NCBI GenBank assembly: GCA_030425645.1
Contig: JAUHZK010000007.1
Coordinates: forward strand, 91,116-155,115
Reading direction: 5' to 3'
From: Gammaproteobacteria bacterium
GTDB taxonomy: Bacteria > Pseudomonadota > Gammaproteobacteria > JAPPPA01
DNA: 64,000 nucleotides
Shown here: positions 4,535 to 32,678 of the stretch, piece by piece
Numbering within the stretch: the first letter of the stretch is position 1
How the letters are laid out: each line of letters begins with the position of its first letter
Notes under the pieces: generated by a model
What the model was told of the DNA's origin: nothing
Seen by the model: only the letters and a program-made list of their open reading frames with translations
Databases searched by the model: none
Program-made: the position numbers and the translations under genes

Positions 4535-4607
4535 TGGTTTTAATCTTCAAATAATCAAGCACAAGCCACGGACTTGTCCGCAGCCATTAAATATAAGTAA
4601 GCGTTGA

Positions 4608-5027
4608 TTATTGAGGTGGTGCGCGCGCTGAGTAGCGGCTAAAAAAAGCGCTTTGTGGCTCTACCGCTTGTAGAGCCAGTTGTTCGCGAAACAGCTCAAA
4701 CTTAGGCTCTTCAAGCTCAGCTGCATTAGCAATGGCGAATAAGCCGGCCGCGCAAAGCTCACAGTCGTTGCCGTCGGCCATCGCGCTGGCCGGCAATAGC
4801 TGCTGCAGCAACTCCGCCGGCAAATCCATAGCCCGTAGCTGCTGCGACAACTGCGGCGACATTTGGCCACAGTAATAGGGGCTAGACACATCCGCAGAGC
4901 GCATCGCCGCCTGTGCCGCCATTGGCAGCAAGGCTTGAAATAAAGCGGCGCATAACAACAGCAAGCGCAATGCGCGGCCGCCCAAAAGGCTGCGTGCATG
5001 GCCACGTTGGCGGAATGAATTCAGCAT
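4608..5027 (-). CDS. DUF2946-family (CruR/CutF-like) leader protein with CxxC and C-terminal RAPP arrest motif
   Basis: Hydrophobic signal-like N-terminus, DCELC, ends YSARAPPQ-stop, 73 bp upstream of the metal-type OMP gene. Confidence 0.75.
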   Translation of the reverse strand: MLNSFRQRGHARSLLGGRALRLLLLCAALFQALLPMAAQAAMRSADVSSPYYCGQMSPQLSQQLRAMDLPAELLQQLLPASAMADGNDCELCAAGLFAIANAAELEEPKFELFREQLALQAVEPQSAFFSRYSARAPPQ

Positions 5028-5031
5028 GTGC

Positions 5032-8750: not shown

Positions 8751-10079
8751 ATGAACACAACACAAAACATTGCCATTATTGGCAGCGGTATCTCTGGCCT
8801 CGTTAGCGCCTACGTTCTTAGCAGCCAACACAAGGTCACCGTATTTGAGGCAGGTAGCTACGCTGGCGGCCACACCAACACCATCGACGTCGAAGAAAAC
8901 GGCAAGAACCTTGCCGTGGATACCGGATTTATCGTCTTTAACAACCGTACCTACCCCAACTTTATCCAGCTGCTAGACCAGTTAGGCGTGGGTAGCCAAG
9001 AAACAAACATGAGCTTTTCGGTTGCCGAGCCTCCCGGCAGCCCACGCAGCGGTTTTGAATATGCCAGCCATGTGCGTGGCTTAGTAGCCCGCAAGCGCAA
9101 CCTGATTGACCCGGACTTTCTACGCATGTTGCGTGACAAATTCCGCTTCGACGCCCTATGCAAAAAAGCACTGAAGGAAAACCCAGACGCGCTTAACGAA
9201 CTGACGCTTGGTGAATTCTTAGACCAGCACAAATTTTCTGAGGCTTTTGCGCGTTATTACATCTTGCCAATGGCCGCTGCCGTTTGGTCGGCGCCACTAG
9301 GCGAAATAACCGACTACCCGATGCTGACGCTAACGACCTTCCTCAGCAATCACGGCCTACTTGGCGTTAATGACGCCCCAACTTGGCGTGTCGTTAACGG
9401 CGGCTCGCGCGAGTATGTCCGCGCACTGCTAAAAAGTTTTGACGGCGAACTAAAGCTGAATACGCCGGTGACCGCCGTCAAACGCCATAAGAATAAAGTT
9501 GTTGTTGAGTCTAGTGCCGGCAAGCAAAGCTTTGACCACGTTATCTTCGCCTGTCACAGCGACCAAGCTCTCGACTTGCTGGCCGACGCCAGCAAGACCG
9601 AACGCGAGGTTTTGGGCGATATCGAGTACCAAGCCAATGAAGCGGCGTTACATACCGACACCCGCTTACTGCCAAGCCGTAAAAACGCACACGCAGCTTG
9701 GAACTACCAGCTGCCGCTTGGCGACTCACCACGCGCCACCCTCACCTACAACATGAATGTGCTGCAAAACCTGCAAAGCAAAAAAACCTACTGCGTCACC
9801 CTCAACCAAACTGACGATATCGATCCAGACAGCATTATTCGCCGGATTGACTACGCACACCCCATTTACAACCGCAAAAGTGTTGCCGCGCAGTCACGCT
9901 GGCGCGAAATATCTGGCCTAGAACAGCGCACCCACTTCTGCGGCGCCTACTGGTTTTACGGTTTCCACGAAGATGGCACCCGCAGCGGTCTGCGCGTATG
10001 CCAAGACTTTGGCCTCAGCCTACGAGACCGCGCCGCGGCTGAGCCCTCTAGCCTAATGGCAGACAATCATGCAGCCTAA
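8751..10079 (+). CDS. COG2907 FAD-dependent oxidoreductase (UfaD-like fatty acid desaturase)
   Basis: IAIIGSGISGL, GGHTNT, VDTGFIVFNNRTYPNF, FCGAYWFYGFHEDG. Start moved to ATG 8751. Confidence 0.88.
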   Translation: MNTTQNIAIIGSGISGLVSAYVLSSQHKVTVFEAGSYAGGHTNTIDVEENGKNLAVDTGFIVFNNRTYPNFIQLLDQLGVGSQETNMSFSVAEPPGSPRSGFEYASHVRGLVARKRNLIDPDFLRMLRDKFRFDALCKKALKENPDALNELTLGEFLDQHKFSEAFARYYILPMAAAVWSAPLGEITDYPMLTLTTFLSNHGLLGVNDAPTWRVVNGGSREYVRALLKSFDGELKLNTPVTAVKRHKNKVVVESSAGKQSFDHVIFACHSDQALDLLADASKTEREVLGDIEYQANEAALHTDTRLLPSRKNAHAAWNYQLPLGDSPRATLTYNMNVLQNLQSKKTYCVTLNQTDDIDPDSIIRRIDYAHPIYNRKSVAAQSRWREISGLEQRTHFCGAYWFYGFHEDGTRSGLRVCQDFGLSLRDRAAAEPSSLMADNHAA

Positions 10080-19569: not shown

Positions 19570-20797
19570 CAGTAGAAACCGAGGAACTAGATAAGGCCAT
19601 TAACGGCCGCACCATGAGCGGCGAAAACATCAACAAGGCAACGATGGACTTAAGCGCCACCGGCACCCAAACATATACCGCCGTGACAAGGCTAGAAGGC
19701 AATATCGCAGCGCCTTGAGCAACCGTTGGCGACGGCCCTAGGGCACCAAACAACGCGAATGCGACCACTACTGCCAACCCCAAAGCCAGCTTCTGCGCCA
19801 TACCCCAAAAGCCAAAACTGGCGCCGACGTTTTCCGCGCCGGCCTGCAAACGCAGCGATACCCATCGGGTTTGCAAGGTCACTGGGGCAACACTATCAAT
19901 ACCGGCACAAAAGCCAGTAACCACACAGCAAAGCAAAAACCACAACACATCACCCTGGCCAAGCAAGGCCACTGGCGCAAAGGCCAAAATCGAGACCAGC
20001 ACGGCGGTTCGCCACAGGCGCAGCAGGCCCAACTGAGGAGCAAAACGCTTGTAGATGAGAACCGCAGCAATAGCCGACAAGAAGTAGGCTATTAACAGCG
20101 CCGGCAACCACTGCTCTGCACCTAACACGTCGCGACAGAACACCAGCAAGACCACACCCGGGACAGCGTTAGCAGTCGAATTCAGCAACCATAACCACCA
20201 TAGGCGCAGGCCAGCCTTGTCCTGCCATAGCACTACCAAATCCTGCTTAACCGAATTTCGCGAACTCGCAGCATTGACGCTTGGCTGCAACCACACCGAA
20301 ACCGCCATCAACAGCAGCATCAACAGCAGCAACCACCAAGCAAAACCAAACAGCGCCGGCAATAACAAACCTAAGATGGTGCCAACTAGCAGCAACGCCT
20401 CTCGACCAGCGTTCCAGCTCAACTGCTCTAGCGGCGCCCGCGTTGTTGGCGCCGCCAACCACGGTACGGCGAGCAATGTCCATCCGAAAAACAACAGTGC
20501 AATCGCCGCGGCAGCAACGAATGGGGTATAGGCCGAGAACAACAATGCCGCAGCCAACAACAGCACCAGCAGCCCCAGTTGCATAACACGGTCACGGCGA
20601 GCGACCCGATCCACCCACACTCCGACCGGCAGGTCGGTGCAGACATCAATAAAACGCGCCAACAGAAACAACCATGCGACCTCGCCAAAACCAAAGCCGC
20701 GCTGCTCTACCAACCACGTGGGCACATATAGATAGAACGGCAGCCCAAGCGCCGCCAAAGGCAAAGCCAGCAAAGAATATCGGATTATGTACAACAT
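19538..20797 (-). CDS. MFS transporter (GPH/MFS_2-like)
   Basis: About 12 hydrophobic segments, LPLAALGLPFYLYVP, ARFIDVCTDLPVGVWVDR, FGFWGMAQKLALGLA. Start moved to ATG 20797. Confidence 0.85.
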   Translation of the reverse strand: MLYIIRYSLLALPLAALGLPFYLYVPTWLVEQRGFGFGEVAWLFLLARFIDVCTDLPVGVWVDRVARRDRVMQLGLLVLLLAAALLFSAYTPFVAAAAIALLFFGWTLLAVPWLAAPTTRAPLEQLSWNAGREALLLVGTILGLLLPALFGFAWWLLLLMLLLMAVSVWLQPSVNAASSRNSVKQDLVVLWQDKAGLRLWWLWLLNSTANAVPGVVLLVFCRDVLGAEQWLPALLIAYFLSAIAAVLIYKRFAPQLGLLRLWRTAVLVSILAFAPVALLGQGDVLWFLLCCVVTGFCAGIDSVAPVTLQTRWVSLRLQAGAENVGASFGFWGMAQKLALGLAVVVAFALFGALGPSPTVAQGAAILPSSLVTAVYVWVPVALKSIVALLMFSPLMVRPLMALSSSSVSTDENTKVLPHG

Positions 20798-20845
20798 ATT
20801 TTTAAATAATAATATGTTGTACTGTTTTTGTATATGTTTTATTAT
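20788..20845 (+). promoter_or_regulatory. sigma70 promoter (-35 TTGTAC, 17 bp, -10 TATTAT) overlapped by a 12-bp inverted repeat and TGTAY boxes
   Basis: -35 at 20817-20822, -10 at 20840-20845. IR GTACAACATATT (20789-20800) / AATATGTTGTAC (20811-20822). TGTACT 20818 and TGTATA 20829 are 11 bp apart. Confidence 0.6.
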
Positions 20846-20851
20846 CTTGTT

Positions 20852-20954
20852 TCGCGCAAGCGAGTCACTTCCCTCTAGTCTCCTCCAGGAAGTGAGGCCA
20901 CGCCAGTGGTCAACAGCAAAACTTGAGGCCGCCATTTGGCGGCCTCTTTTTTTT
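20852..20954 (+). ncRNA. Candidate small regulatory RNA (three hairpins, CU-rich anti-SD loop, intrinsic terminator)
   Basis: Stem TCACTTCC/GGAAGTGA with loop CTCTAGTCTCCTCCA. Stem GGCCAC/GTGGTC. Terminator GAGGCCGCCA-TT-TGGCGGCCTC+T8. Promoter immediately upstream, no credible ORF. Confidence 0.6.
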
Positions 20955-21025
20955 GCACAACCACATGCGTATACAACTTTGCAGCAAAGCCATCTAGCCG
21001 AAACAATCGAAACCAATATGCAGGC

Positions 21026-21057
21026 AAAAAAAAACCAGCCCGAGGGCTGGTTTTTTT
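21026..21057 (-). terminator. Intrinsic terminator originally downstream of tRNA-Lys
   Basis: A9-CCAGCC-CGAG-GGCTGG-T7, directly beyond the duplicated tRNA 3' end. Confidence 0.8.
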
Positions 21058-21061
21058 GAAG

Positions 21062-21112
21062 ATGGTGGGTCGTGTAGGATTCGAACCTACGACCAATTGG
21101 TTAAAAGCCAAC
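21062..21112. repeat. att site: 51-bp direct repeat of the tRNA-Lys 3' part
   Basis: ATGGTGGGTCGTGTAGGATTCGAACCTACGACCAATTGGTTAAAAGCCAAC is identical to 28441-28491. Confidence 0.95.
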
Positions 21113-21270
21113 AACGGTATTTTAAAAAAAATTATCTAATTCAATGGGATACGAAGTTTATACTATCCCTCCAACTTCAGAATGACACAACTGTAAGCCT
21201 TTGTTTTTTATATCTTTGGCATATAGAGTGGGATAAGCTCTTATTACGTTTATTAGCTGACCAGCACTTC

Positions 21271-21552
21271 CTATCTATGGCTCGTATCTTCTCGTATGGG
21301 AAATGTTGCTGAGTACTGTTTTGCTATCGCACCCATAGCAAGCGAAAGCTCAGGTGGAAGCATAAACCACATAGGATTTCCGAAAGCATTTGGGTAGCCA
21401 ATATCTTCGTCACCATCTTCCCCATTCCACCGCATTGCCAGCTGAATATCTCCGTGCTCATACCGCCCCCACGCAACTGAAAAACCATTCAAGTCATACA
21501 AGACTTCTACAACTTGAAAGTTTTTAGGATTTACACGACTTGGATTGACCAT
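21271..21552 (-). CDS. Hypothetical cargo protein (RWNG...GYP...G.P.WF.LP motif)
   Basis: ATG with AAGGAAG RBS. Compact globular-looking sequence with W/G/P motifs. Confidence 0.7.
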   Translation of the reverse strand: MVNPSRVNPKNFQVVEVLYDLNGFSVAWGRYEHGDIQLAMRWNGEDGDEDIGYPNAFGNPMWFMLPPELSLAMGAIAKQYSATFPIREDTSHR

Positions 21553-21666
21553 TTTCTTCCTTATTTATCCTTATTTTCAGCGCAAATTAACAATCGCACC
21601 CCAGTAGATTGATAGCAAACTCAAAACGGGTTATCAAACCGCGAAAGGTCTTACCAATAACCATAG

Positions 21667-22719
21667 CTACCTGAATATCGCATCATACTTACGCAAAGTC
21701 CTATCGTCCCGAATAAGCTCGTCAACAAAATCTTCATTGGAATAAATACCTGACAACATATCTCTTACACGAAGCGGCAAATCCACAGCCTCCTCCGCGA
21801 TGACAAACTGCAAATAAGCCTTGTTAGCTTCAAACCGTTCATTTGTCATATCAAAAATTACATAAGCCGAGAGTTTTTTAAGGTCTTCATAATTTTTAAG
21901 TGCCGTGTAACGCTTAACTTCCTCCTGATAATCCAACAGGCGTTTGATAGGTATGTATCCGCTTCCCTCATCAGCTAGGATCATGCGCTGACCATCGGGA
22001 CGAGGAAACTCATTTACACACTCCATTAGCCTCTGTTGGATACCTTTGTAGGAAGTATCGGTATAAGGCTGATTCATTTTGTTTCGTGGTTCTATTGGCT
22101 CGTCAGCGTGCGTATCAAAAAAGTCAGGGGCGGAATATTGCAAGTAAATCTTGTTGGACAGCTCACTACGTCTATTGGAAGTGTTTTTAGCATATTCAAG
22201 AGTAATCTCATCTCCCCGTTCGACCTTCATTAATATCTCTTGAGCCAACTTGTTGCTCTCGCTCACAAAGGCTTTCAACTCGCTAAAGATATAATCACTT
22301 TCGGCGCTTACCTCGACCCAACCATTCTCAAACTTATCAGCTAATAATTGAGATTCGCATGCCCCAAATTTAATCAAGTGTTTGTTGAAGTGAATATCTT
22401 TCTTGAGTTTCCGCAGTTTAATTTTGTTGGCCTCATTTATTGCGGTTTGCTTCTTTACAAGCGCATCAACAAGCTCCGATACGCCACTCATTTCACATTC
22501 GTACCTAACCTCAGCAAAGCCTTCACTTTCATTTAGAACGTCCCATTTAGTTGCGTCACAGCTTTGCCATGCATCGAACACCAAACCAATAGGTTTGATT
22601 CCGAAGCTGCTAATGCTCTGTTCTTTTAGATCCGTGATCCAATCTTTTTTTCCGCAGCCTGATATACCAACAACCAATAGACAACAAAGGAAAACCATCA
22701 ATTTTTTAAGGTCAAACAT
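21667..22719 (-). CDS. Hypothetical cargo lipoprotein
   Basis: Long ORF, GGAG RBS, KK + hydrophobic stretch + ISGC lipobox. Confidence 0.75.
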   Translation of the reverse strand: MFDLKKLMVFLCCLLVVGISGCGKKDWITDLKEQSISSFGIKPIGLVFDAWQSCDATKWDVLNESEGFAEVRYECEMSGVSELVDALVKKQTAINEANKIKLRKLKKDIHFNKHLIKFGACESQLLADKFENGWVEVSAESDYIFSELKAFVSESNKLAQEILMKVERGDEITLEYAKNTSNRRSELSNKIYLQYSAPDFFDTHADEPIEPRNKMNQPYTDTSYKGIQQRLMECVNEFPRPDGQRMILADEGSGYIPIKRLLDYQEEVKRYTALKNYEDLKKLSAYVIFDMTNERFEANKAYLQFVIAEEAVDLPLRVRDMLSGIYSNEDFVDELIRDDRTLRKYDAIFR

Positions 22720-23097
22720 CTAAGACACTCCCGCCAGTCAAGCCTAATAACAACTTCGTTAGATACAAACCAATCTATGGCCGCATCTACATAATTAAAA
22801 CTACCGCCCAATTGCAAGTAGCTAATTAGATTAAAATTTTATCCACAGTAACAAGCCTTTACTAAGTGTCAACCTATTTTGTAGTGTGCGAAGGCACTAC
22901 GGCACGTGCTCTACTTACAACACGCTTTACCCACAAAAGCCCGCTACAGCCTACCATAGAATCGGCCCTCCTTTTGTATTGGATGCAAACAGATAAAACG
23001 TATCTAAACACCGGATGCAATCAAACCTGTTAACCGTATTAAAGGCCTTTTGCTTCTGCCGAAAAGGCTCCATAGCCATTTACTTGTCTTGTGGTAG

Positions 23098-23146
23098 CAC
23101 GTTATTAGCAAAACTAATTGAGTCGTCACGGTGAGCTTCATATCCT
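23098..23146 (+). promoter_or_regulatory. Repeated element promoter module, copy 1 (upstream of rep-like gene)
   Basis: CACGTTATTAGCAAAACTAATTGAGTC, with -35 TTGAGT 23118-23123, 17 bp spacer, -10 TATCCT 23141-23146. Confidence 0.75.
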
Positions 23147-23173
23147 GACCTTCTATGTAAGGAAAAAAAGGAA

Positions 23174-23611
23174 ATGAACCAATTTGATTTAATCGACAGA
23201 GAAACAGGCGAAGTCTTAGATGCAAAACACATTGTTGCGCCTAAGAAGATACCTTCAGCCTTCCACGAAGGCTTCAATATGATTGGCCTATTCGGCTGTG
23301 AATACCTGACTAAATTAGGTGCTGAAGGAAAACTCACGCTGACCGATTTCGTAGTCTTGTGTAAGTTACTCACGGATAACAACTACGAGAACAGCCAAGG
23401 CTTAAACATAGCTAAGCTGGCAAGAGACATTGGGAAAGACCGATCTCAAGTCAGCAAAGCAATCAAGCATTTGCAAAGCCACGATTTATTCATTCGACAA
23501 AAAGATAAAGACGGCCTGCCTGAGTTGCTCTTCAACCCCAACTACTTTTGGCGTGGCAGGCCAGCGCTCCATAAGCAAGCTATTCGCCACTACAAAAAAG
23601 ACAAGTCTTAA
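23174..23611 (+). CDS. RepL-like winged-helix replication/maintenance protein
   Basis: IDRETGEV N-terminal motif, HTH IAKLARDIGKDRSQVSKAIKHL, FNPNYFWRG C-terminal motif. Confidence 0.6.
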   Translation: MNQFDLIDRETGEVLDAKHIVAPKKIPSAFHEGFNMIGLFGCEYLTKLGAEGKLTLTDFVVLCKLLTDNNYENSQGLNIAKLARDIGKDRSQVSKAIKHLQSHDLFIRQKDKDGLPELLFNPNYFWRGRPALHKQAIRHYKKDKS

Positions 23612-25356
23612 AGCCCTAAGTCACGGCTATTATCTTGCTCTCTACGCTTCAACTCACGATACAGCTTGTTACTGATTGTCATTTTCGGTTTGGGTTGCGG
23701 TGCTTCTTTATCAGCAACCATTTTTTTCACCAAACCTAATGCCTTTTCACAGCAAAGAGCCGACAGGTGCAATATCTTGGTCAGGAAGTTGCCGTAATGC
23801 CTAAAGCCGGACAAGTGGTAACCCTGTTGTATTTCTCCGCCTATGTGATTGGCAAAATTTTCCGCAAAATCATTCAGCGATTCTTGGCTTAGTTCTAAGC
23901 CATAAAGCGGAACACTAAACACCACCTCAAAATCATTTGTGGCTAGTTGTTGAGTCAGACTAGGCATATAGCCTTGCGCTTCCAGTTTGTCGATTTGGCG
24001 TTGCGACAAATCACCAATGCAAAACTGAAAATAGCCCTCGCGGCGCGGGGCAATCTGCAAGACATAACCCTTGCTCGACAACTGCATTAAGCCAGCCATT
24101 TTGTCGCTGAGTTGCTCCTCTGAATAAACATGACGCTTAGGTGCTTGGTAGTTGTTTGGGTTTGAGATTATTAGCTCGTATTTATCAGCCTGAATAGCGT
24201 CGAACTGCTTTTGCAGTTCCTTCATTTTGTATTGATAACTCATGCTGCTTACAACGCCTCCTTGATTGGAGAGAAGCTCATCAAGAGCACGCCAGCGACG
24301 ATACCCAGCACGAAGGCTGAGGTTATGGTCCACAGCGTGCTTCTCAAAGTCGCCAGCTCGTGCTTCTGCATTATCTGAAGCTGGAGCTTCCTGTTGCGGT
24401 CCAGGGTTTTGCTGAACTTCTGGTATTGCTTGGTTAGACTTTGGCTCGCCTGAGTGCTCTGCTTTGTAACCCGTGTCATTTGCTCGTTGATGTTCAACAA
24501 GGTTTGTTGCAGAACTTTCTGAGTTTCTGCTTCTGTTCTGACTAAGTGCTTTTTTGATTTGGTTTGTGCAGCGGATAAGTTCTCCGCTTTCTGTGGCTTG
24601 TTCATAGCTAACTCCTTTTTCTAATAATTGTTTTAAGCTGTAGCCTTTCCCTAGTTGGGAACCCTTGAACGTAATGCCTTCCAGTTGAAAGGCCATTCCG
24701 TTGAGTCGTCCGGTGCTTGCCACATTAGGTATGGCAATCACTCCTGACGCTTTTAATCGCTCTATAAAAGCGAAAACTGATTGAGGCTCATTCAATGCCT
24801 CGTCTATGAGCTGTTGTAGCTGTTGGCGGATTGGGGCGCGCCCTTCACGCAACGCTTTTTCCATCTCGTTTTTAGTTGCTTGTTTCTTGTCGCGTTGGGC
24901 TTCTTCAAACGTCTTTGTAATCGTCAAACCGAACTGCTTTTCTAAATCGCTAGCGACGCGCATGGCAGAAAAGTATTCCCAGCGCCCATTCCATAACTGC
25001 CCGTTTAAACCGATACGGCTGGCAACGATGTGAATATGTTGTCCGTTGGTGTCGCTATGCGATACGGCAACCCATTGGTGAGCGTCGCTAAACCCCATGC
25101 GCTCCACATAGGCATTGGCCACCTCGGAAAACTTCTCTGCTGGGATGGTTTCGTTATCGGGCAGTCTTAGCCACGAGTGGCTGACTGGCTTAATGATTGA
25201 AGGGCGTTTATTTCGGCTAATGCCGAACTCTGCCGATAACTGTAGCGGGTTAGTGCCTGACATATTCCCAGCGACGATTTCAGCACCCTTGCTGTCGCCG
25301 AATACATACGACAGCGCACCGTAAAAACCGTTGCCTCTTATTGCTCCGGCTTTCAT
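23608..25356 (-). CDS. Relaxase (MOBP-like mobilisation nuclease) with C-terminal RepB'-primase-like domain
   Basis: GNGFYGALSY (catalytic Tyr region), PVSHSWLRL, HSDTNGQHIHIVASRI HUH motif, FKGSQLGKGYS. ATGA overlap with mobC. Confidence 0.88.
   Translation of the reverse strand: MKAGAIRGNGFYGALSYVFGDSKGAEIVAGNMSGTNPLQLSAEFGISRNKRPSIIKPVSHSWLRLPDNETIPAEKFSEVANAYVERMGFSDAHQWVAVSHSDTNGQHIHIVASRIGLNGQLWNGRWEYFSAMRVASDLEKQFGLTITKTFEEAQRDKKQATKNEMEKALREGRAPIRQQLQQLIDEALNEPQSVFAFIERLKASGVIAIPNVASTGRLNGMAFQLEGITFKGSQLGKGYSLKQLLEKGVSYEQATESGELIRCTNQIKKALSQNRSRNSESSATNLVEHQRANDTGYKAEHSGEPKSNQAIPEVQQNPGPQQEAPASDNAEARAGDFEKHAVDHNLSLRAGYRRWRALDELLSNQGGVVSSMSYQYKMKELQKQFDAIQADKYELIISNPNNYQAPKRHVYSEEQLSDKMAGLMQLSSKGYVLQIAPRREGYFQFCIGDLSQRQIDKLEAQGYMPSLTQQLATNDFEVVFSVPLYGLELSQESLNDFAENFANHIGGEIQQGYHLSGFRHYGNFLTKILHLSALCCEKALGLVKKMVADKEAPQPKPKMTISNKLYRELKRREQDNSRDLGL
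24249..24605 (-). CDS. MobB-like accessory protein nested out-of-frame inside the relaxase gene
   Basis: Strong AAGGAG RBS before ATG 24605, coiled coil plus one C-terminal TM helix. Same layout as nested mobB/mbeB genes. Confidence 0.65.
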   Translation of the reverse strand: MNKPQKAENLSAAQTKSKKHLVRTEAETQKVLQQTLLNINEQMTRVTKQSTQASQSLTKQYQKFSKTLDRNRKLQLQIMQKHELATLRSTLWTITSAFVLGIVAGVLLMSFSPIKEAL

Positions 25357-25691
25357 TGCGCTTTCACCCCGATTAAAGCGTTGCGGGTATCGGCTAAGAC
25401 GTTTTGCGTCCGCTCAACATCTTCGATTACGCCAGCAATGTTGGCGCGGCGCGCCAACTGATTAAGCAAGCCTGACAGCTTATTGAGCTGGGACCATGCT
25501 TTGAAATTAACAGGTGGGATATGTTGCACTTGGGCGGTAAACGCCAAGGTGCGCAAGTATTCGCCACGGGCAGCATGCCCGCGTAAATCGTCGAGTTGAT
25601 TTAGTTCTAAATCCGTTAGTCGGCACCCTATGCGGTGCGACCTTTTAAGGTCTGCGGGCAGTCTTTTTCTGCCTCTTCTTCTGTGCTCCAT
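25353..25691 (-). CDS. mobC: MobC-like ribbon-helix-helix relaxosome accessory protein
   Basis: RGRKRLP..LKRSHRIGCRLTD.E, RGEYLR, LNKLSGLLNQLARRAN. Directly upstream of the relaxase. Start ATG 25691. Confidence 0.8.
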   Translation of the reverse strand: MEHRRRGRKRLPADLKRSHRIGCRLTDLELNQLDDLRGHAARGEYLRTLAFTAQVQHIPPVNFKAWSQLNKLSGLLNQLARRANIAGVIEDVERTQNVLADTRNALIGVKAQ

Positions 25692-25724
25692 GTTTGTTGT
25701 TCTTCTAATGTCTTGCCGTCGTAA

Positions 25725-25800
25725 GCAAAGCGCCACAAGGGCACCCGTTAACGGGCAAGCAAGGATATTTGGCCAGCCAAATTACTCCTTGCTACTTCTC
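25725..25800. other. Candidate oriT
   Basis: Palindrome CCCGTTAACGGG (25744-25755) and nested IR AGCAAGGA/ATTTGGC..GCCAAAT/TCCTTGCT (25758-25793), upstream of mobC. Confidence 0.4.
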
Positions 25801-25839
25801 ACAGTAAACTATTTTACGATCTATATCAATAACTTATAT

Positions 25840-25886
25840 CGTTATTAGTAAAACTAATTGAGTCAAGCAGGAGAGATCCATAAGCT
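25840..25886 (+). promoter_or_regulatory. Repeated element promoter module, copy 2
   Basis: CGTTATTAGTAAAACTAATTGAGTCA, with -35 TTGAGT 25858-25863, 17 bp spacer, -10 TAAGCT 25881-25886. Confidence 0.75.
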
Positions 25887-25915
25887 GAAATAGTCAATTC
25901 AATAAGGAGTTATAT

Positions 25916-26305
25916 ATGACAAGAAGAAAATTAGTAAGTAGCCACAGCCCGCGCGAATACCTCACCAAGTGCAATAAAGCCATCAACATATATTGGGATT
26001 TCTACACCGTGCTAGACAAACCAGAAAAAAGAGGTTTTGTAGTCACAAATTTCACTTTAAACAATAGGTTCTTATGCTTTAAACCCGAGTTCCCTACAAG
26101 GGGCCGTTTTAACACCACGGCATTCCCCGATGAATTGAGAAGGGAGCTCCAAGTGTTTTTTTATACGAAATGTGATTTCTCTAAGGAAAATTTTGAAAAA
26201 TTGGGGTTCATAATTGAGCTAGCAATTATGCTGATTAAGCACAGTAAGCACTTCGAGAATCATTGCATGAGCTTTTATGAAATGGCTGTAAGAACCGGGT
26301 CATAA
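25916..26305 (+). CDS. Hypothetical protein
   Basis: Strong TAAGGAG RBS, located right behind promoter module copy 2. Confidence 0.65.
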   Translation: MTRRKLVSSHSPREYLTKCNKAINIYWDFYTVLDKPEKRGFVVTNFTLNNRFLCFKPEFPTRGRFNTTAFPDELRRELQVFFYTKCDFSKENFEKLGFIIELAIMLIKHSKHFENHCMSFYEMAVRTGS

Positions 26306-26367
26306 CCCTTTTAATTTTAACTTTGGTCACAGCCAGAACAGTATATGACGCAGTCACCCATAGGCCT

Positions 26368-26904
26368 TTATAAAACACTCTCTATCTCTGAGCTTATGTG
26401 TCTGGCCTGTGTGACTTGCTTCCGCCTCATTTCGTCAGAGGCTTTCAAAATATCCCATAGCTCGGTGCGCTTTGTTCCACCGTCGCTATCATTCTCTGCC
26501 TTGCCAAGGCCCGCTATTTGGCTGTGTAGACGAGCAACTTGTCTTTCTAAACGCTCGTTGTCAGAAGTCAAAAATTGAAGCCTTGCAGTCATAGCATTAA
26601 GGCGGTTGGCTTCTTGTGTTTGTTTCATTTGCAACCATAGTGCCTTGGCTTGCTCGGCGTTTGCGTCGGTGCTGGCCTTTAGCTCTCGTCCCTGTAGCAA
26701 GATAGCAATAAGCCCAAGCGTAATTGCCATTGTGGTGAAAATTCCGTCAGTGATCGCTAAGGCATCACCCAGCCCCGCTAAAGTTGTGGGTAGCTCCATA
26801 CCCTCCAAAAACGTTGGCAGCGGAGCTAATCCCGTCGCCACCAAAAGTACTGCTCCCCAAGTCGAAAGAACTAGCGCTACTAGCAGTGCAACATTCGCAT
26901 TCAT
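26368..26904 (-). CDS. Hypothetical membrane protein (two TM helices + coiled coil)
   Basis: Two hydrophobic segments (..GLGDALAITDGIF..LIAILLQGREL) followed by a heptad-rich region. Start moved to ATG 26904. Confidence 0.7.
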   Translation of the reverse strand: MNANVALLVALVLSTWGAVLLVATGLAPLPTFLEGMELPTTLAGLGDALAITDGIFTTMAITLGLIAILLQGRELKASTDANAEQAKALWLQMKQTQEANRLNAMTARLQFLTSDNERLERQVARLHSQIAGLGKAENDSDGGTKRTELWDILKASDEMRRKQVTQARHISSEIESVL

Positions 26905-26959
26905 ATTGATTACCTGTGCTTTTTGACAATTATTTTTAACCAACGCATAAGGCCTAACC

Positions 26960-27008
26960 CACGTTATTAGTAAAACTAATTGAGTCACTATTGCACGCTC
27001 AATAGTAT
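26960..27008 (+). promoter_or_regulatory. Repeated element promoter module, copy 3 (upstream of sORF-xis-int)
   Basis: CACGTTATTAGTAAAACTAATTGAGTCA, with -35 TTGAGT 26980-26985, 17 bp spacer, -10 TAGTAT 27003-27008. Confidence 0.75.
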
Positions 27009-27032
27009 GGGCGCCTCTAATAAGGAAGAGGC

Positions 27033-27131
27033 ATGAACCAATACGAAAAAACTATATATAACAGGCGAGTAGAGTGGCGCCAAGCGCACGTAAAAAATAC
27101 AGACTCAAGTGAAACCGGAGGTGACTCATGA
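27033..27131 (+). CDS. 32-aa small ORF coupled to the xis-like gene (not in ORF track)
   Basis: TAAGGAAGAGG RBS. MNQYEKTIYNRRVEWRQAHVKNTDSSETGGDS*, with an ATGA stop/start overlap at 27128-27131. Confidence 0.5.
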   Translation: MNQYEKTIYNRRVEWRQAHVKNTDSSETGGDS

Positions 27132-27352
27132 AACCTTCTGATCAACTTGGATCAACATATTCACGATTTTTATCGAAGCAGGAGCTAATAGATTTAACAG
27201 GCAAGAGGGCTGCTTCAGCCCAACGCCGTGCGTTAGATTTTATGAAACTGCCCTACATAAGGAGACCCGACGGCACACCAGTTGTCACGTCTGGAATCTT
27301 TGAAAGCAGAGGCAATAGGAAAAACTCACCTAACTGGGAGAGCTTGTCATGA
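27128..27352 (+). CDS. DUF4224-like protein, probable excisionase/RDF
   Basis: FLSKQELIDLTG....AQRRAL.......RPDGTPVV...PNW pattern. ATGA overlap with the integrase. Confidence 0.75.
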   Translation: MKPSDQLGSTYSRFLSKQELIDLTGKRAASAQRRALDFMKLPYIRRPDGTPVVTSGIFESRGNRKNSPNWESLS

Positions 27353-28374
27353 AATCATTTGCGCAAGGAGTCCGCTGGAAGTGCGGCGCATATCGTTATC
27401 GCGTACCCCGCTGGGTAGAGCAAAGCACCGTGGATAGCGTATTCAACGGGAAAAGAGAATATAAATTAGGTAAAACCCAATATGAAGCGGCGGTCGAGTA
27501 TGCCCGCGTTATGCGTGAGCTTGAGGGACCAATTAGTACCATAGTAACCATGGGCGACTTAATGACCCGTTATAGGTCGGAAGTCGTCCCTCTGAAGCAC
27601 CCCAAGACTCAAACAAGCAATATCATTAGCTTAAACAGGCTTTACAGTGTTTTTGCCAATATTCAACCAATTAACTTTGAGACCACTTTTGTCTTCCAAT
27701 ACCGAGACAAGCTAAAGGACACACGAACTAGCGCCAACAGAGACTTAGAAGTTTTAAGCCATCTTTTTAGCAAAGCGATTGAGTGGGGGGTTATAAAAAA
27801 CGAAGCACACCCAATGAGGGGATTGAACTATAAATATAGCAATCCCCCACGAGACAGGTACGTGAGCGACACAGAAGTCGAAGAAGCCCTTAAGGTGGCT
27901 TCTCCATTCCTATACGCCTATATCCAGCTCAAGCTCTCTCTGGGGTTGCGCAAAGGCGACATGCTACGCATTAAGCTCTCTGATTTGACTCCCGAGGGCA
28001 TACAAGCGACCAATACTAAAACAGGCAAAAAAACTTTATATACGCTGACTCCAGAGAGAAAAACGGCATGGGACTTATGCCTTAAAGCTCGACCAAGGAG
28101 TCGCACTCACTTCAATCTTTTGTTCTGCACAAGAGACGGCAAACCCTATATTGACGAGCAAGGCACAACCTCTGGTTTCGATAGTGTATGGCAACGCTTT
28201 ATGAAAAAAGCTTTGGCAGAAACCAATCTAGAAGAAAGATTTACGGAACACGATCTAAGGGCAAAAGTTGCTAGCGACAGCAAAGACAGCGAACAAGCGC
28301 GCAAGCGTATGGGCCACACCAGCTCTGCCGTAACAGAACGCGTATATAGGAGAAAAGCTGAGAGAGCAGACTAA
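27349..28374 (+). CDS. int: Tyrosine recombinase/integrase
   Basis: ANRDLEVLSHLFSKAIEWG, GLRKGD (Arg), KTGK, HDLRAK, MGH, VY catalytic set. Adjacent to the att site. Confidence 0.93.
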   Translation: MKSFAQGVRWKCGAYRYRVPRWVEQSTVDSVFNGKREYKLGKTQYEAAVEYARVMRELEGPISTIVTMGDLMTRYRSEVVPLKHPKTQTSNIISLNRLYSVFANIQPINFETTFVFQYRDKLKDTRTSANRDLEVLSHLFSKAIEWGVIKNEAHPMRGLNYKYSNPPRDRYVSDTEVEEALKVASPFLYAYIQLKLSLGLRKGDMLRIKLSDLTPEGIQATNTKTGKKTLYTLTPERKTAWDLCLKARPRSRTHFNLLFCTRDGKPYIDEQGTTSGFDSVWQRFMKKALAETNLEERFTEHDLRAKVASDSKDSEQARKRMGHTSSAVTERVYRRKAERAD

Positions 28375-28378
28375 CTCC

Positions 28379-28411
28379 GTGGGATAAACCACGGTTTGTG
28401 GGATAAGCTCT
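28379..28411 (+). repeat. Putative integrase arm-type sites (GTGGGATAA)
   Basis: GTGGGATAA 28379-28387 and GTGGGATAAGCTCT 28398-28411. The same 14-mer occurs at 21228-21241 near the other att. Confidence 0.6.
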
Positions 28412-28441
28412 CCGGCCCGAAGGCCGGAAACCCTTATAAAA

Positions 28442-28517
28442 TGGTGGGTCGTGTAGGATTCGAACCTACGACCAATTGGTTAAAAGCCAACTGCTCTACC
28501 AACTGAGCTAACGACCC
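28442..28517 (-). tRNA. tRNA-Lys (anticodon UUU)
   Basis: Reverse complement GGGTCGTTAGCTCAGTTGGTAGAGCAGTTGGCTTTTAACCAATTGGTCGTAGGTTCGAATCCTACACGACCCACCA, 76 nt with encoded CCA. Confidence 0.98.
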
Positions 28518-28604: not shown

Positions 28605-29324
28605 TCAAGTGTTTTTTTCATCCGTTGCTAGGTATTGAGTCGGATCATCAACACCAGCCTCAGAAAAACCAGCTTGCCGTATACGGCAAGAGTCACAACG
28701 ACCGCAGGCTTTACCTTCGGCATTGGCCTGATAACAGGAAACCGTTTGCCCGTAATCAACACCCAGAGCTAGGCCTTGGCGAATAATGTCTGCCTTAGTT
28801 AAATCAATTAGCGGCGTTTCGATCGCAATCGTGTCACCTTCGACACCGGCCTTGGTTGCCAAGTTAGCCATGGTTTGAAAAGCACTGATGTACTGCGGAC
28901 GACAGTCGGGGTAGCCGGAGTAATCAACCGCATTAACGCCGGCAAAAATGGCCTGCGCTCCCAGCACCTCTGCGCAACCCAGAGCAACGCTGAGCATAAT
29001 CGTATTCCGCGCCGGCACATAGGTAACCGGGATACCGCTCTCAAGCGGCTCATCGGCCTCATGCTCTGGCACAGCAATATCGTCGGTTAACGCTGAGCCA
29101 CCGATGGCACGCATATCCACATCAACAATCCGGTGCTCAATGGCACCCAGTTGCTGGGCAACTCGCTTGGCGGCGTTTAGCTCTGCAATATGGCGCTGGC
29201 CATAAGAAACACTTAGGGCGTAACAGGCGTAGCCCTGAGCTTTAGCCATCGCCAAGGCGGTGGCAGAGTCCAAGCCACCCGAGAGCAGCACCACCGCGCG
29301 CTTATTGACAGCATAACTACACAC
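28605..29324 (-). CDS. queC: 7-cyano-7-deazaguanine synthase
   Basis: [30 protein letters not shown]...CGRCDSC. Probable GTG start overlapping the queE stop. Confidence 0.95.
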
Positions 29325-29991
29325 CGGGCTTATTTCCCCATAGCAATTTGTGTAACTGCATTTGCAGCCGCACTGGAAGCTTGTCGTCCAAAATCCATTG
29401 CGCCAGCTCAGCAGCATCAAGCTGTTCGTGACTGGGCGAAAACAATACCGTACAGACGTCGGCTAACGACTTTTCCTGCAGCAGCTGTTTGGCCCAGTCA
29501 TAGTCCGCCCGCGAACAAAGCACGATTTTAATTTGATCCTGTGGCGTTAAATGCGACAAGTTTTCCCATAAGTTTTTGTCGCATTCAGCCGAATCTGGAG
29601 TTTTTAAATCCAACACTCGGATCACCCTTGGATCGGTAACCGAGATATCCATAGCGCCACTGGTCTCGAGTGAAACACTCAGGCCTTCATCCAATAAGCG
29701 CGATAGAAACTGGGAGCAATTCTTTTGCGCCAGAGGCTCTCCCCCTGTGACACAAACATGAGGCGTACCGTGACTTTTAATTTCAGCCACTAGCTCATCA
29801 AAACTGCGCCAATCGCCACCATGAAATGAATAAGTGGTATCGCAATAAAGACAACGCAACGGGCAACCCGTTAGGCGCACAAACACAGTCGGCAAGCCAA
29901 CTTGTAAGGCCTCACCCTGTAGCGAATAAAAGACTTCGGTAATTTTCAGGCGCTCGGCACGTTCGGCCAAGCGCCCTTTACTATCTGACAT
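29317..29991 (-). CDS. queE: 7-carboxy-7-deazaguanine synthase (radical SAM)
   Basis: [37 protein letters not shown]. Confidence 0.95.
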
Positions 29992-29996
29992 ATGAG

Positions 29997-30725
29997 TTAG
30001 AAGCTAGCGAGCTTTTGCTGCGCGAGTTTAGCCTGCGTAGTGCCGGCATAGTCGGTTACTACTTGTTGCAGCAACTTACGCGCTTCGTCTTTATGCCCTT
30101 GAGCCAAACGGGTATAGCCTAGCTTTAACATCGCATCACGGCCCTTTTTGCTGCCCGGGTATTGAGTCAACACCGCCTCAAAGGCTGTAGCCGCTTTAGC
30201 AAAGGACTGCCCCACATACAAACTTTCACCCAACCAATACTGGGCATTAGGTGCCAAATCATGCTGCGGGTATTGCTTCAAGAACTGCGTAAAGCCAACG
30301 TTGGCTTGGTCATAACGGCCTTTTTTCAATAAGCCGAAGGCCTGGTCATAGGCTAGCTTGGCATTATCCGTTGCTACCGGCGAAGCGCCACCAGTGCTAG
30401 CACCGTTGGATTCCAACGCTTGCAAACGGCTATCCAAATCAACATAGAGATTTTTCTGCTGGGTGCGCAACTGGGTTAACTCAAAACTCATGCGCTCTAA
30501 CTCACCACGTAACTCTCGTTCACGGGCCTGCAACTCTTGCAGGTCGGTAAACAGGTTCACTTGGTTTTGCCCCTGCGCACGACGCTCCAGATCAGCAAGC
30601 CTAGAGCTCATCTCGTTAAGTTTTACTTCCGTAGGGCTAGGCTGCCCCGGTTGCCCATTTAACGGCACACAGGCAGCAGCGCCAAGCACTAGCGAAGCAA
30701 CACCAAGGCAACGGAAAAAACGCAT
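29997..30725 (-). CDS. cpoB: Tol-Pal system protein YbgF/CpoB
   Basis: Coiled coil + TPR (NAQYWLGE, DAMLKLG). Lies downstream of pal. Confidence 0.9.
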   Translation of the reverse strand: MRFFRCLGVASLVLGAAACVPLNGQPGQPSPTEVKLNEMSSRLADLERRAQGQNQVNLFTDLQELQARERELRGELERMSFELTQLRTQQKNLYVDLDSRLQALESNGASTGGASPVATDNAKLAYDQAFGLLKKGRYDQANVGFTQFLKQYPQHDLAPNAQYWLGESLYVGQSFAKAATAFEAVLTQYPGSKKGRDAMLKLGYTRLAQGHKDEARKLLQQVVTDYAGTTQAKLAQQKLASF

Positions 30726-30733
30726 GATAAACA

Positions 30734-30773
30734 CCTATGGGTTAGGCCCTATGAGTTAGGCCTATGAGTTAGG
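30734..30773. repeat. Three tandem 13-bp repeats CCTATG(A/G)GTTAGG
   Basis: Copies at 30734-30746, 30748-30760 and 30761-30773 in the pal-cpoB spacer. Confidence 0.8.
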
Positions 30774-30780
30774 ACAACAA

Positions 30781-31314
30781 TTAGTAACGCAATTCAACAC
30801 GGCGGTTCAAAGACCAGCTGCGCTCGTCATGACCCAACGCTGCCGGTTTTTCTTCACCATAGCTAAGGATACGAATCTGAGCTGGGGTCACGCCGTAAAG
30901 CAACATCATGCGACGCACTGATTCTGCCCGCTGTTGCCCCAAAGCAATATTGTATTCACGAGTACCACGCTCATCGGCATGGCCTTCTAGCACGACACTC
31001 TCAGACGGCGTAGCCGCCAAGTACTTAGCGTGCGCCTCTACCAACTGGCGACCTTCAGCACTGAGGCTAGAGTCGTCAAAGGCAAAATAGATAACACGAC
31101 TCTGCAGTGGCGAGTCGGGATGATTTAACGGGTCTACCTGCCAAGCCGGGCCACGCTCAATCGTAGTCACCTGGGCACCAGAGCCATTACTACCGTTGCT
31201 AGCAGCCGGGTCAAAACCACCATTTTCATCGGTTTTCACTACATCTTGACCACCACAAGCAGCCAACAGTGCAATTCCAGAAACCAGTAAACCGTTACGT
31301 AATATCTTGTTCAT
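30781..31314 (-). CDS. pal: Peptidoglycan-associated lipoprotein
   Basis: Lipobox LAAC, IYFAFD, EGHADERGTREYNIALGQQRA, SYGEEKP. Confidence 0.96.
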   Translation of the reverse strand: MNKILRNGLLVSGIALLAACGGQDVVKTDENGGFDPAASNGSNGSGAQVTTIERGPAWQVDPLNHPDSPLQSRVIYFAFDDSSLSAEGRQLVEAHAKYLAATPSESVVLEGHADERGTREYNIALGQQRAESVRRMMLLYGVTPAQIRILSYGEEKPAALGHDERSWSLNRRVELRY

Positions 31315-31352
31315 TGTTAATTCCTAGCTGTACAAGCAATAGAAGAATAGGT

Positions 31353-32648
31353 CTATTTTACAAAAGGTGACCAAATAGGTTCACGAATATCACCAAAAGA
31401 GTCGCTAAGCCGTTGATGCACTTGGCCGTCAACCGACACCGCCGCCAACTCCGCGCGATTTCCGCGCTGCGTGGCGTAGACAATAATGGCACCGTTCGGC
31501 GAAAAGCTTGGCGACTCATCCAAAGCACCGTCAGTCAACGTCAGCTGGCTACGGCTAGCAATATCAAATACGGCAATTTTATAACTACCGCGGTCATTGG
31601 TAACCAAGGTGAGTTTTTTGCCATCCGGCGAATAACGCGCGCGCAGATTTTCTTTACCTTCAAACGTTAAGCGCTGGATACGATTGCTGGATAAATCCAT
31701 TTCGTAAATTTGTGCACCGCCGCCACGGTTCGAGGTAAATACCAATTTGTCGCCATTCGGAGAAAACGCCGGCTCGGTATCAATCGAAGGATTACGCGTA
31801 AGGCGCTGTTTGCGCCCACTGGCAATATGGTGCAGCCAAATATCAATATTGCCGCCCTTTGAAAGCGTCAAAGCTATGCGGGAACCGTCTGGCGAAAATA
31901 CCGGCGCGCCGTTAATGCCATCTTGGCTCGACACCTTAGTCCGCTGCCCCGTACGCAGGTCTTGAATATAAATAGCCGAGCGGCCCTTCTCAAAACTCAC
32001 GTACGCAAGCTGCTGACCGTCTGGCGACCAAGTCGGTGACATTAATGGCTCAGCCGAACGGGTTACTGGGCGCGGATTGGCACCGTCAATATCTGCCACA
32101 TTCAAGACATATTGCAGGCCACCATCACGCTGAGTAAGAGAGACATAGGCGATATTGGTATTAAATGCGCCTCGCTCACCCAAAATTTTCTCGTAAATCA
32201 GGTCGCTAATGTAGTGCGCACCGGCGCGCTCCTGCCCTTTAGCCACAGGAATGTTATAGGCCGACAGGCGCTCCTGCTTAAACACGTCCAGCAGTTCAAA
32301 TTGGTAGATATAGCCGCCATTTCCGGCCGGCTTAATATTGCCCACCACCAGAAAATCCATATCGAGAATGCGCCAGTTCGGATAGTCCACGGCCGCCGAC
32401 GTGCTAGGTTTCTCTAACATATCGCCACGCGCCATCGCCTTAAAGCGCCCGGTGAGCTGTAAGTCGGTTTCAATAATGCGAGCGACGTCATTATCGCCGG
32501 TGCTGGCGCCCTCCAACATCTCAAATGGCACCACCGCAATCGGTAAAGCGCCGACTGCACCTTGTGTAATTTCAACCTTAAGCACAGCCTGCGCTGGCAA
32601 CCAGCAAGAGGCTAAAACAAGGATGGCAACTCGGAAAAACGATTTCAT
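31353..32648 (-). CDS. tolB: Tol-Pal beta-propeller protein
   Basis: [38 protein letters not shown]40 repeats. Confidence 0.95.
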
Positions 32649-32678
32649 AATCAGCAATTCACTATTCAAACAGGCACG

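Follow-up and report, generated by a model that had tools for sequence, protein, structure and literature searches.

A compact island in tRNA-Lys with the features of an integrative mobilizable element and an IncQ-like transfer module

A 64-kb stretch of gammaproteobacterial DNA (64,000 nucleotides of contig JAUHZK010000007.1, here called the window) carries an island of 7,379 bp at a tRNA-Lys gene. The island is most probably an integrative mobilizable element (IME) with a relaxase of its own, the type termed iMOB, and without a mating apparatus; we put the probability of this reading at about 85%. It is placed in this class because an integrase and att repeats are found at tRNA-Lys, the element encodes its own relaxase, and genes for mating-pair formation and coupling are missing; the criteria are those given in the defining parts of PMC11389934 and PMC5704250. 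An earlier note on this DNA had proposed a helper-dependent satellite in which a phage-type int/xis module is joined to the mob module of a small plasmid, and the analysis supports this proposal.

How might such an element move? Int and Xis, guided by GGGATA repeats in the att arms, would excise a 7,379-bp circle. MobC and the relaxase would then nick a hairpin-type origin of transfer (oriT) situated upstream of mobC, and a co-resident conjugative plasmid or integrative and conjugative element (ICE), absent from this genome, would supply the coupling protein and the pore. In the recipient, Int would put the circle back into tRNA-Lys.

Insertion site and recombination module

The features at the two ends of the island, with the genes for excision, are as follows.

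21026..21057, minus strand: original intrinsic terminator of tRNA-Lys, outside the element, bidirectional, now split from its gene
21062..21112, minus strand: attR, in which 51 bp from the 3' part of tRNA-Lys are duplicated
21145..21241, strand given for each repeat: left-arm repeats, TGGGATA at 21145(+), AGGGATA at 21164(-) and GTGGGATAAGCTCT at 21228(+)
27033..27131, plus strand: orf32 (32 aa); good ribosome-binding site, stop codon overlapping the start of xis through ATGA
27128..27352, plus strand: DUF4224 protein, likely excisionase (recombination directionality factor); PF13986, phrog_1266
27349..28374, plus strand: tyrosine integrase; PF00589, phrog_1, catalytic motifs
28379..28428, plus strand: right-arm repeats and C(UUCG)G hairpin, with GTGGGATAA at 28379, GTGGGATAAGCTCT at 28398 and the hairpin at 28411-28428
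28441..28491, minus strand: attL, the 51-bp repeat, of which 50 bp (28442-28491) lie inside the intact tRNA-Lys(UUU)

The sole tRNA gene in the window is tRNA-Lys(UUU), at 28442-28517 on the minus strand, and a tRNA is the only match above threshold in an Rfam scan. The 3' 50 bases of this gene and one base more make up a direct repeat of 51 bp (21062-21112 and 28441-28491). The two copies are 100% identical, so that the perfect att repeats described earlier are confirmed. A longer repeat of 54 nt (21059-21112 and 28438-28491) has a single mismatch, at its third base. The attR region also gives a partial tRNA match at 21073-21125, below the Rfam threshold. The 7,379 bp between the repeats are low in G+C, at 0.40-0.48 in 14 of the 15 bins of 500 bp (0.53 in one bin); for the left flank the range is 0.51-0.58, for the right flank 0.48-0.56. 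The 7.3-kb interior is single copy in its own assembly (2.75 Mb, 99.5% complete).

The native terminator of the tRNA gene had been said to lie displaced at 21026-21057, and there is indeed a hairpin there, which starts four bases past the tRNA remnant, folds at -19.4 kcal/mol (z -5.3) and has U9 after it. The C(UUCG)G hairpin reported after the tRNA, at 28411-28428, is real as well; it lies 13 nt past tRNA-Lys and folds at -20.9 kcal/mol (z -3.7). A U-tract is absent after it on both strands, and it is thus not a canonical terminator.

The integrase matches PF00589 at 41.7 bits (cut-off 27.1) and phrog_1 at 1.6e-36. Tyrosine recombinases carry the consensus R-K-H-R-H-Y. The corresponding residues can be assigned from the sequence as R201, K224/K227, H301-x-x-R304, H323 and Y333, and the catalytic set is complete, as had been claimed. 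The DUF4224 protein is likely the excisionase: it matches PF13986 at 44.4 bits (cut-off 22) and phrog_1266, labelled 'excisionase', at 1.3e-9. A literature search on DUF4224 gave no paper on its function, judging by titles and abstracts. Three genes, orf32, xis and int, are chained by ATGA overlaps, which agrees with the coupling of the DUF4224 gene to int that was seen before.

The 14-mer GTGGGATAAGCTCT is found as an exact copy at each end of the island (21228 and 28398). Within 175 bp of the two att cores lie five of the twelve DGGGATA sites of the 64-kb window. The sister species G001, the one further genome of the genus (88% complete), has identical right-arm repeats and an identical hairpin, and the bases that intervene have changed. 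The GGGATA repeats are good candidates for arm-type sites bound by integrase and excisionase.

Part of the evidence on mobility comes from the assembled contigs of four sequencing runs, two of them likely source runs. The element assembles as a contig of its own, 7,388 nt long and with the repeats at its ends; this is compatible with circles and equally with their absence.

The transfer module

Four features make up the transfer module.

23608..25356, minus strand: relaxase (MobA/VirD2 type, 582 aa) with a degenerate RepB' primase domain; PF03432
24249..24605, minus strand: nested open reading frame (ORF) of 118 aa in another frame of the relaxase gene, MobB-like by position
25353..25691, minus strand: MobC, a NikA-like relaxosome accessory protein; alternative GTG start at 25736
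25743..25793, minus strand: candidate oriT, an imperfect hairpin whose 5' arm holds the core AGCAAGGAGTAA (25793-25782), and after it a short G+C hairpin

The relaxase matches PF03432 at 79.4 bits (cut-off 24.6; 3.9e-22) and has the motif H100-S-D-x4-H107-I-H109 (HxDx4HxH, residues 100-109). Its N-terminal tyrosine Y17 is invariant in an alignment of 18 sequences and is the presumed catalytic residue. The stop of mobC overlaps the relaxase start through ATGA. MobC has a NikA-like match of 26.4 bits, slightly below the cut-off of 27, and is 33-37% identical to annotated plasmid MobC proteins (pairwise E 2e-13 to 3e-15). The mobC-relaxase pair of the earlier note thus stands, together with the relaxase match to a hidden Markov model on which that note had made its reading depend.

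From what source was this module drawn? A comparison with 72,556 plasmid records gave 488 matches to the relaxase, one of which alone covers at least 80% of the query. This one is on a Serratia plasmid, and its annotation reads 'mobilization protein', 'IncQ-type MobB' and 'RepB family DNA primase'. The N-terminal 262 residues are 44-46% identical to relaxases of plasmids of 4.8-10.9 kb; the two that were examined in detail, pGXY040 and pBRST7.6, fall into types IncQ1 or IncQ2; their relaxase is of type MOBP, and both carry repA and repC. In a collection of 5.8 billion clusters the full-length relatives are proteins of 714-750 aa that join PF03432 to PF16793 (RepB primase) and PF22448 (its helix bundle), and the element relaxase is 33% identical to these fusions over 93-95% of its length. 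The transfer module is best read as derived from an IncQ-type plasmid, because the full-length relatives and the best-covering plasmid match are relaxase-RepB fusions and the N-terminal matches are IncQ-typed. The same collection holds one relative that is also of 582 aa, 91% identical to the element relaxase. A 14-kb Logan contig encodes this relative together with an 83% relative of the winged-helix protein considered below.

The nested ORF has AAGGAG 7 nt ahead of its ATG, and a hydrophobic helix at its C-terminal end. In related IncQ-type plasmids a gene is nested at the corresponding position; the Serratia plasmid has it annotated as IncQ-type MobB, pGXY040 as a hypothetical protein. Similarity to the nested ORF of pGXY040 is weak (E 4e-4). 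The oriT candidate shares the core AGC(A/G)AGG(T/A)GTAA, with a hairpin, with three of the four plasmids compared (pGXY040, pBRST7.6 and a Marinobacter plasmid); the Serratia plasmid is without it. In the plasmids the annotated start of mobC is about 80-130 bp away from these cores, which lie upstream of the gene. The hairpin arms near the core vary in sequence from plasmid to plasmid and pairing is kept. In the element the candidate DNA fold has an energy of -13.1 kcal/mol (z -3.4).

Families of a type IV secretion system (T4SS), coupling protein or virion are present in none of the element ORFs as scanned with Pfam, PHROGs and NCBIfam. The element's own genome likewise has 0 matches to the families sought as transfer machinery, namely VirB4, TraG/VirD4, TrwB and AAA_10 (PF03135, PF02534, PF10412 and PF12846), and the element relaxase is the only relaxase it encodes. 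It follows that a helper has to be external, unless it resides on unbinned plasmids. The absence of T4SS, coupling-protein and phage structural genes, previously noted for the element, extends for the first two to the whole genome.

Could the element instead be a phage satellite, of the phage-inducible chromosomal island (PICI) or P4 type, which spreads in the capsids of a helper and for which the relaxase is secondary? The int and xis genes are of phage type by their PHROG matches, the element is small and sits in a tRNA gene, and one IMG/VR contig carries a 43%-identical integrase. That contig has nothing in common with the element except the integrase, however, and a search of the element with Pfam, PHROGs and NCBIfam gave no capsid-remodelling, packaging, terminase small-subunit or primase-helicase family. 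The presence of a complete relaxosome module and of a plasmid-type oriT candidate also speaks against a satellite of this sort, which we regard as very improbable.

A primase remnant on the relaxase

By profile comparison, the relaxase residues from about 385 to 545 form a catalytic domain of the RepB' type. It has diverged too far for Pfam, whose RepB_primase model finds no match in the element's own relaxase. The profile of the relaxase family matches RepB' of RSF1010 (PDB 3h20) with E 8.3e-33. When an alignment of 18 sequences is mapped onto the 3h20 numbering, the element is seen to have D77 replaced by G448, D134 by G507, R145 by H514 and Y62 by Q434, while D78 is kept (D449). A deletion of 4 residues takes out part of the 'GDPxF...FRMAGFxNKK' block, and the helix-bundle domain (PF22448) is deleted. 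The 91%-identical relative of 582 aa has the same changes in the primase domain and is also without the helix bundle.

The mutant analysis in PMC8567376 reports that RepB' with D77A, D78A or D134A yields no primer and that the catalytic domain alone is inactive. The RepB' domain of the element relaxase is almost certainly no functional primase, judged by its residues, because two out of three catalytic aspartates, as well as the helix bundle, are gone. We infer that it is a leftover of the IncQ-type ancestor that would be unable to prime DNA synthesis.

Repeated boxes and the winged-helix protein

A second distinctive part of the element is a repeated promoter/operator box and a gene for a small winged-helix protein.

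23100..23146, plus strand: box 1, ATTAGCAAAACTAAT, -35 TTGAGT, 17 nt, -10 TATCCT, 28 nt to the winged-helix gene
23174..23611, plus strand: MarR-like winged-helix protein of 145 aa, of a RepL/RepM-related family; HTH_36 and MarR near cut-off
25840..25886, plus strand: box 2, ATTAGTAAAACTAAT, -35 TTGAGT, 17 nt, -10 TAAGCT, 30 nt to ORF129
26962..27008, plus strand: box 3, the palindrome, -35 TTGAGT, 17 nt, -10 TAGTAT, 25 nt to orf32

The 25-bp box CGTTATTAG(T/C)AAAACTAATTGAGTC has 3 copies in the window, all on the plus strand, against 0 in 100 shuffles. In each box a 15-bp palindrome, ATTAGTAAAACTAAT (6-3-6), overlaps TTGAGT; in box 1 the palindrome has one change. The distance from the -10 sequence to the start codon is constant, at 25-30 nt, and the palindrome lies about 42 bp upstream of where a weak promoter of the form TTGAGT-17 nt-TAnnnT would be expected to start. 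Activation would be in keeping with weak promoters that have a dimer site centred near -42, and repression is equally possible.

The arrangement suggests that the winged-helix gene, ORF129 and the orf32-xis-int operon share one regulator, most likely the winged-helix protein itself. The 145-aa protein would thus probably bind the three boxes. On the other strand box 2 has TTGACT with the palindrome in the spacer, and this faces the mob operon; that box 2 might act on the mob operon is speculation.

When a 22-nt pattern of the box was sought in 596 billion bases of species genomes, one exact match was obtained, at 10001-10022 of a contig of Aquiflexum sp. As a sign of a related element this match was rejected as chance; no homologue of an element protein is encoded nearby.

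The winged-helix gene is convergent with the relaxase gene. Its product matches HTH_36 and MarR slightly under their cut-offs, and has no match to Pfam RepL (PF05732) at E <= 0.1. A phmmer search of 1.84 billion representatives gave 93 relatives. Among 50 aligned family members, matches at E <= 0.01 are to RepL in 35, MarR_2 in 38, Phage_rep_O in 8 and TIGR01610 (the phage O N-terminal domain) in 15. The convergent RepL-like gene of the earlier note is accordingly upheld in part: the gene is convergent and winged-helix, and RepL is reached at the level of the family, but not by the protein itself. In hhalign comparisons the family profile gives a probability of 52% (E 1.4e-4) with RepL of Bartonella, and of 100% (E 1e-43) with a gene of pLAO51. 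The latter is a plasmid of 2,043 bp which has this winged-helix gene (144 aa) and a MobV relaxase only. At 1086-1124 of pLAO51 two tandem 18-bp palindromes GTTATCATTATTGATAAC are found ahead of the winged-helix gene, beside TTGACG, and the layout of this operator resembles that described for pIGMS31 RepM.

The AF2 model of the element protein has a pLDDT of 92, and its best matches in PDB are regulators of the MarR family. By this model the fold alone cannot tell a regulator from an initiator.

The replication question

Is the 145-aa protein an initiator of replication? If so, the island would be an integrative and replicative element, whose excised circle is kept or amplified as a plasmid, with the origin in the 450-bp gap at 22720-23173. 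The family of 93 representatives, with RepL, Phage_rep_O and TIGR01610 among the matches of its aligned members, is in keeping with this, as is pLAO51, where a member of the family is the only gene besides MobV. Initiators of pHW126-like plasmids are MarR-like winged-helix proteins; the initiator RepM is described in the relevant part of 10.1101/2022.12.05.519187 as MarR-like, as binding inverted repeats before its own gene and as repressing that gene. In the element the winged-helix gene and xis-int stand under the same promoter/operator box, and many IMEs encode Rep-like proteins, the role of which is said to be unstudied in the part of PMC5704250 that treats them.

Against an initiator is the lack of a RepL match in the protein itself, at the threshold given, and the modest probability of the one RepL profile comparison. 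A cluster of iterons is missing from the intergenic regions of the element, where two 11-mers come closest to one. By its sequence the fused primase is inactive, and there is no helicase. The fold matches transcription regulators, and one palindrome at each of three promoters suits a regulator better than an origin. Depth of the element contig in the two likely source runs equals that of its flanks (24.6 against 25.4 and 23.2; 24.3 against 25.2 and 23.0), although contig depth is not copy number and this is a weak hint only. We consider replication of the excised circle a doubtful possibility, well short of an even chance. That the element is 'replicative', as was stated earlier, is not established: iterons are lacking, depth is as in the flanks and the primase appears dead.

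A more elaborate history can be imagined, in which an IncQ-type plasmid became a chromosomal hitch-hiker. RepA and RepC would have been swapped for Int and Xis, the dead RepB' kept for a non-catalytic job, and the winged-helix protein would be the master switch of its own synthesis, of excision and possibly of a burst of replication and transfer. This scenario is conjectural and on balance improbable. Equally tentative is the job that RepB' might have in it, for example the binding of single-stranded DNA hairpins and the handing over of the strand to host priming.

Relatives and evidence of mobility

Contigs from two other studies contain parts of the element. Run X7, from another study, has six pieces over 24500-28255 without base differences, one of them with a 6-base deletion; run X3, from a third study, has 21083-22987 with 1 difference in 1,905. 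The gaps in these runs carry no weight (in X7, 20300-22707 and nearly all to the right of 28727; in X3, 26019-26319). These near-identical core pieces support the view of the earlier note that the element is recent or still active.

Variant segments are found in the same runs. In X7 a piece at 23435-24266 has 63 differences in 832 and adjoins identical core pieces, and X3 has the segment 24808-25087 in two versions, with 0 and 38 differences in 280. The element thus circulates in several mosaic variants. Loose contig ends at 21060, 28439-28456 and 28517 were considered as signs of other insertion contexts and were left unused, as they may stem from tRNA-Lys genes of other organisms.

A 5.6-kb contig of the sister species G001 shows the right flank seen here, with a tRNA-Lys that is identical and an integrase next to it. 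This integrase is 86.7% identical to that of the element in DNA and 90% in protein, compared with 72-77% for five flanking chromosomal genes. Protein identity falls to 52% for the xis, inside which the contig (C185) ends; integrase and xis occupy 4254-5569 of it. The rest of the element was not found in this 88%-complete assembly. By these identities the occupant of the site in G001 is related and mosaic, and it is younger than the split of the two species, its integrase being less diverged than the flanking chromosome. This adds to the indications of recent activity. An empty site was not met with: the left flank was not found, as DNA or as protein, in the two nearest genomes (88% and 75% complete), and the right flank led to the occupied site in G001, not to an empty one.

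Might the island be a fixed, immobile remnant, inherited vertically in the genus and merely keeping its open reading frames? Occupation of the same tRNA-Lys in G001 by a related int-xis pair would fit, as would the want of a helper and of a junction in the contigs. Yet attR, which is unconstrained, is still perfect over 51 bp, and the recombination and mobilization ORFs are all intact and coupled. The unequal divergence of integrase, xis and flanks in G001 denotes a mosaic and not co-divergence, and the core pieces in the runs of other studies are identical beside diverged or unlike sequence. A fixed remnant is held to be quite improbable.

Some points weigh against a mobilizable element as such, or against parts of the mechanism set out above. 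No helper element was identified. No att junction (attP or attB) was found in the contigs, whose index rests on 31-letter words, shorter than the 51-bp repeat, and which probably cannot resolve one. A search for the relaxase in GTDB species genomes and JGI metagenome contigs gave no close relative, and of 399 other genomes sampled from the class 3 matched, over the N-terminal domain only. The nested ORF has no significant similarity to the annotated MobB of the Serratia plasmid, and the oriT core is drawn from four sequences only. The promoters of the boxes agree with 7-8 of 12 consensus positions, which is under the threshold of the promoter scan, and a protein that binds the palindrome of the boxes is putative.

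Comparison with known systems

The mob modules of IncQ plasmids (of RSF1010 type; pGXY040, pBRST7.6 and the IncQ-like Serratia plasmid) have the same order of mobC, relaxase-RepB' fusion and nested small ORF. The likeness extends to the relaxase domain and MobC, at the identities given above, and to an oriT-like core with hairpin upstream of mobC. However, the primase domain of the element is without D77, D134, R145 and the helix bundle, and its mob module is integrated beside int and xis and not carried on a plasmid. The parts of an IncQ replicon sought in the element, the RepA helicase, the RepC initiator and iterons, are missing. As judged by its genes, the element is not an IncQ replicon, nor does it have an active RepB' primase or a RepL protein by the Pfam model, nor is it a phage satellite.

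NBU1 inserts in the 3' end of a tRNA gene, as does the element. The canonical IMEs or iMOBs NBU1, NBU2 and Tn4555 of Bacteroides, as outlined in parts of PMC5704250 and PMC11389934, are also alike in having an integrase, their own MobP-type relaxase and an oriT (a candidate here), in the lack of mating-pair genes, in the need for a helper and in small size. They are from a different phylum and their proteins are unrelated. The element adds to this plan an IncQ-derived MobC, a mobB-like ORF, the primase remnant and the RepL/RepM-related winged-helix gene. Of the canonical IMEs described by 2017, none is from Proteobacteria in the account given in the part of PMC5704250 that deals with them.

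Plasmids of the pHW126-like and RepL types (pIGMS31 with RepM, pLAO51 and pKM19s) resemble the element in that a MarR-like winged-helix protein of 145-200 aa stands behind one or more palindromic operators, and in that its gene is likewise paired with a mobilization gene on a very small replicon. The element protein is only 24-33% identical to 48 more distant aligned family members. Unlike these plasmids, with iterons and a conserved region, the element has one palindrome at each of three dispersed promoters.

Islands of the GIsul2 type offer another parallel, since parts of an IncQ-type plasmid have been captured in an integrase-bearing chromosomal island, according to their description within PMC5704250. 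The parts differ: that description has GIsul2 keeping IncQ-like repA and repC and lacking a relaxase, whereas the element keeps the mob genes and has lost the replication genes. No title or abstract describing an IME with an IncQ-type MobA-RepB module was found in full-text searches of the literature. Mosaic IMEs are a known and heterogeneous kind; the element belongs there and overturns nothing.

Elements that bear a relaxase and borrow the pore of others are thought to be very common, and few have been dissected. The present one is small and complete. Its parts are two att sites with repeats in their arms, an excision operon of three genes, a relaxosome that derives from IncQ and has a candidate oriT, and one repeated operator. 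It may serve as a convenient model for the coupling of excision, regulation and mobilization. The primase domain without an active site records the decay of a plasmid module once integration replaces replication. Genes for resistance, toxins or defence cannot be recognized in the element, so that its interest lies in mechanism and evolution.

Orphan genes and flanking sequences

Four further genes lie in the element.

21271..21552, minus strand: ORF93, orphan cargo, with an AAGGAAG ribosome-binding site
21667..22719, minus strand: ORF350, predicted lipoprotein, orphan cargo, with a signal peptide and the lipobox ISGC
25916..26305, plus strand: ORF129, orphan, downstream of box 2 (putative promoter)
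26368..26904, minus strand: ORF178 (206 aa from GTG 26988), orphan, with a membrane N-terminus and a coiled coil

None of these ORFs, of 93, 350, 129 and 206/178 aa, matches a family above cut-off in Pfam, PHROGs, NCBIfam or PADLOC, and the count of four orphan genes made earlier is unchanged. Matches in PADLOC were dismissed as coiled-coil noise only. In Atlas, ORF350 finds unnamed clusters only. ORF178 has coiled-coil matches only, all sub-threshold, and Atlas returns unnamed Pseudomonadota clusters (0.93-0.94). ORF129 has no match besides itself in the 5.8 billion clusters, and its single-sequence AF2 model, with a pLDDT of 38, is unusable.

The right flank (28605-32669) holds queC, queE (radical SAM), a cpoB/ybgF-like gene, pal and tolB, which identifies the insertion site as the tRNA-Lys that follows the tol-pal cluster. 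A gene for a transporter of the major facilitator superfamily (MFS) forms the left flank.

Several minor observations concern the sequence next to attR. A consensus scan for terminators missed the hairpin with T7/U9 at 21035-21057, though its stated criteria seem to apply to it. A sub-threshold Rfam match to RNAI on the minus strand at 21026-21101 (31.1 bits against a gathering score of 47, E 0.011) covers the displaced terminator and the tRNA remnant, and is probably due to chance. At 20925-20946, within the 5' extension of the longest MFS frame, there is another strong hairpin; it has 8 G-C pairs, and a T-run on the plus strand. Because of this hairpin the real MFS start likely lies downstream of it, and 20861-21061 is probably intergenic.

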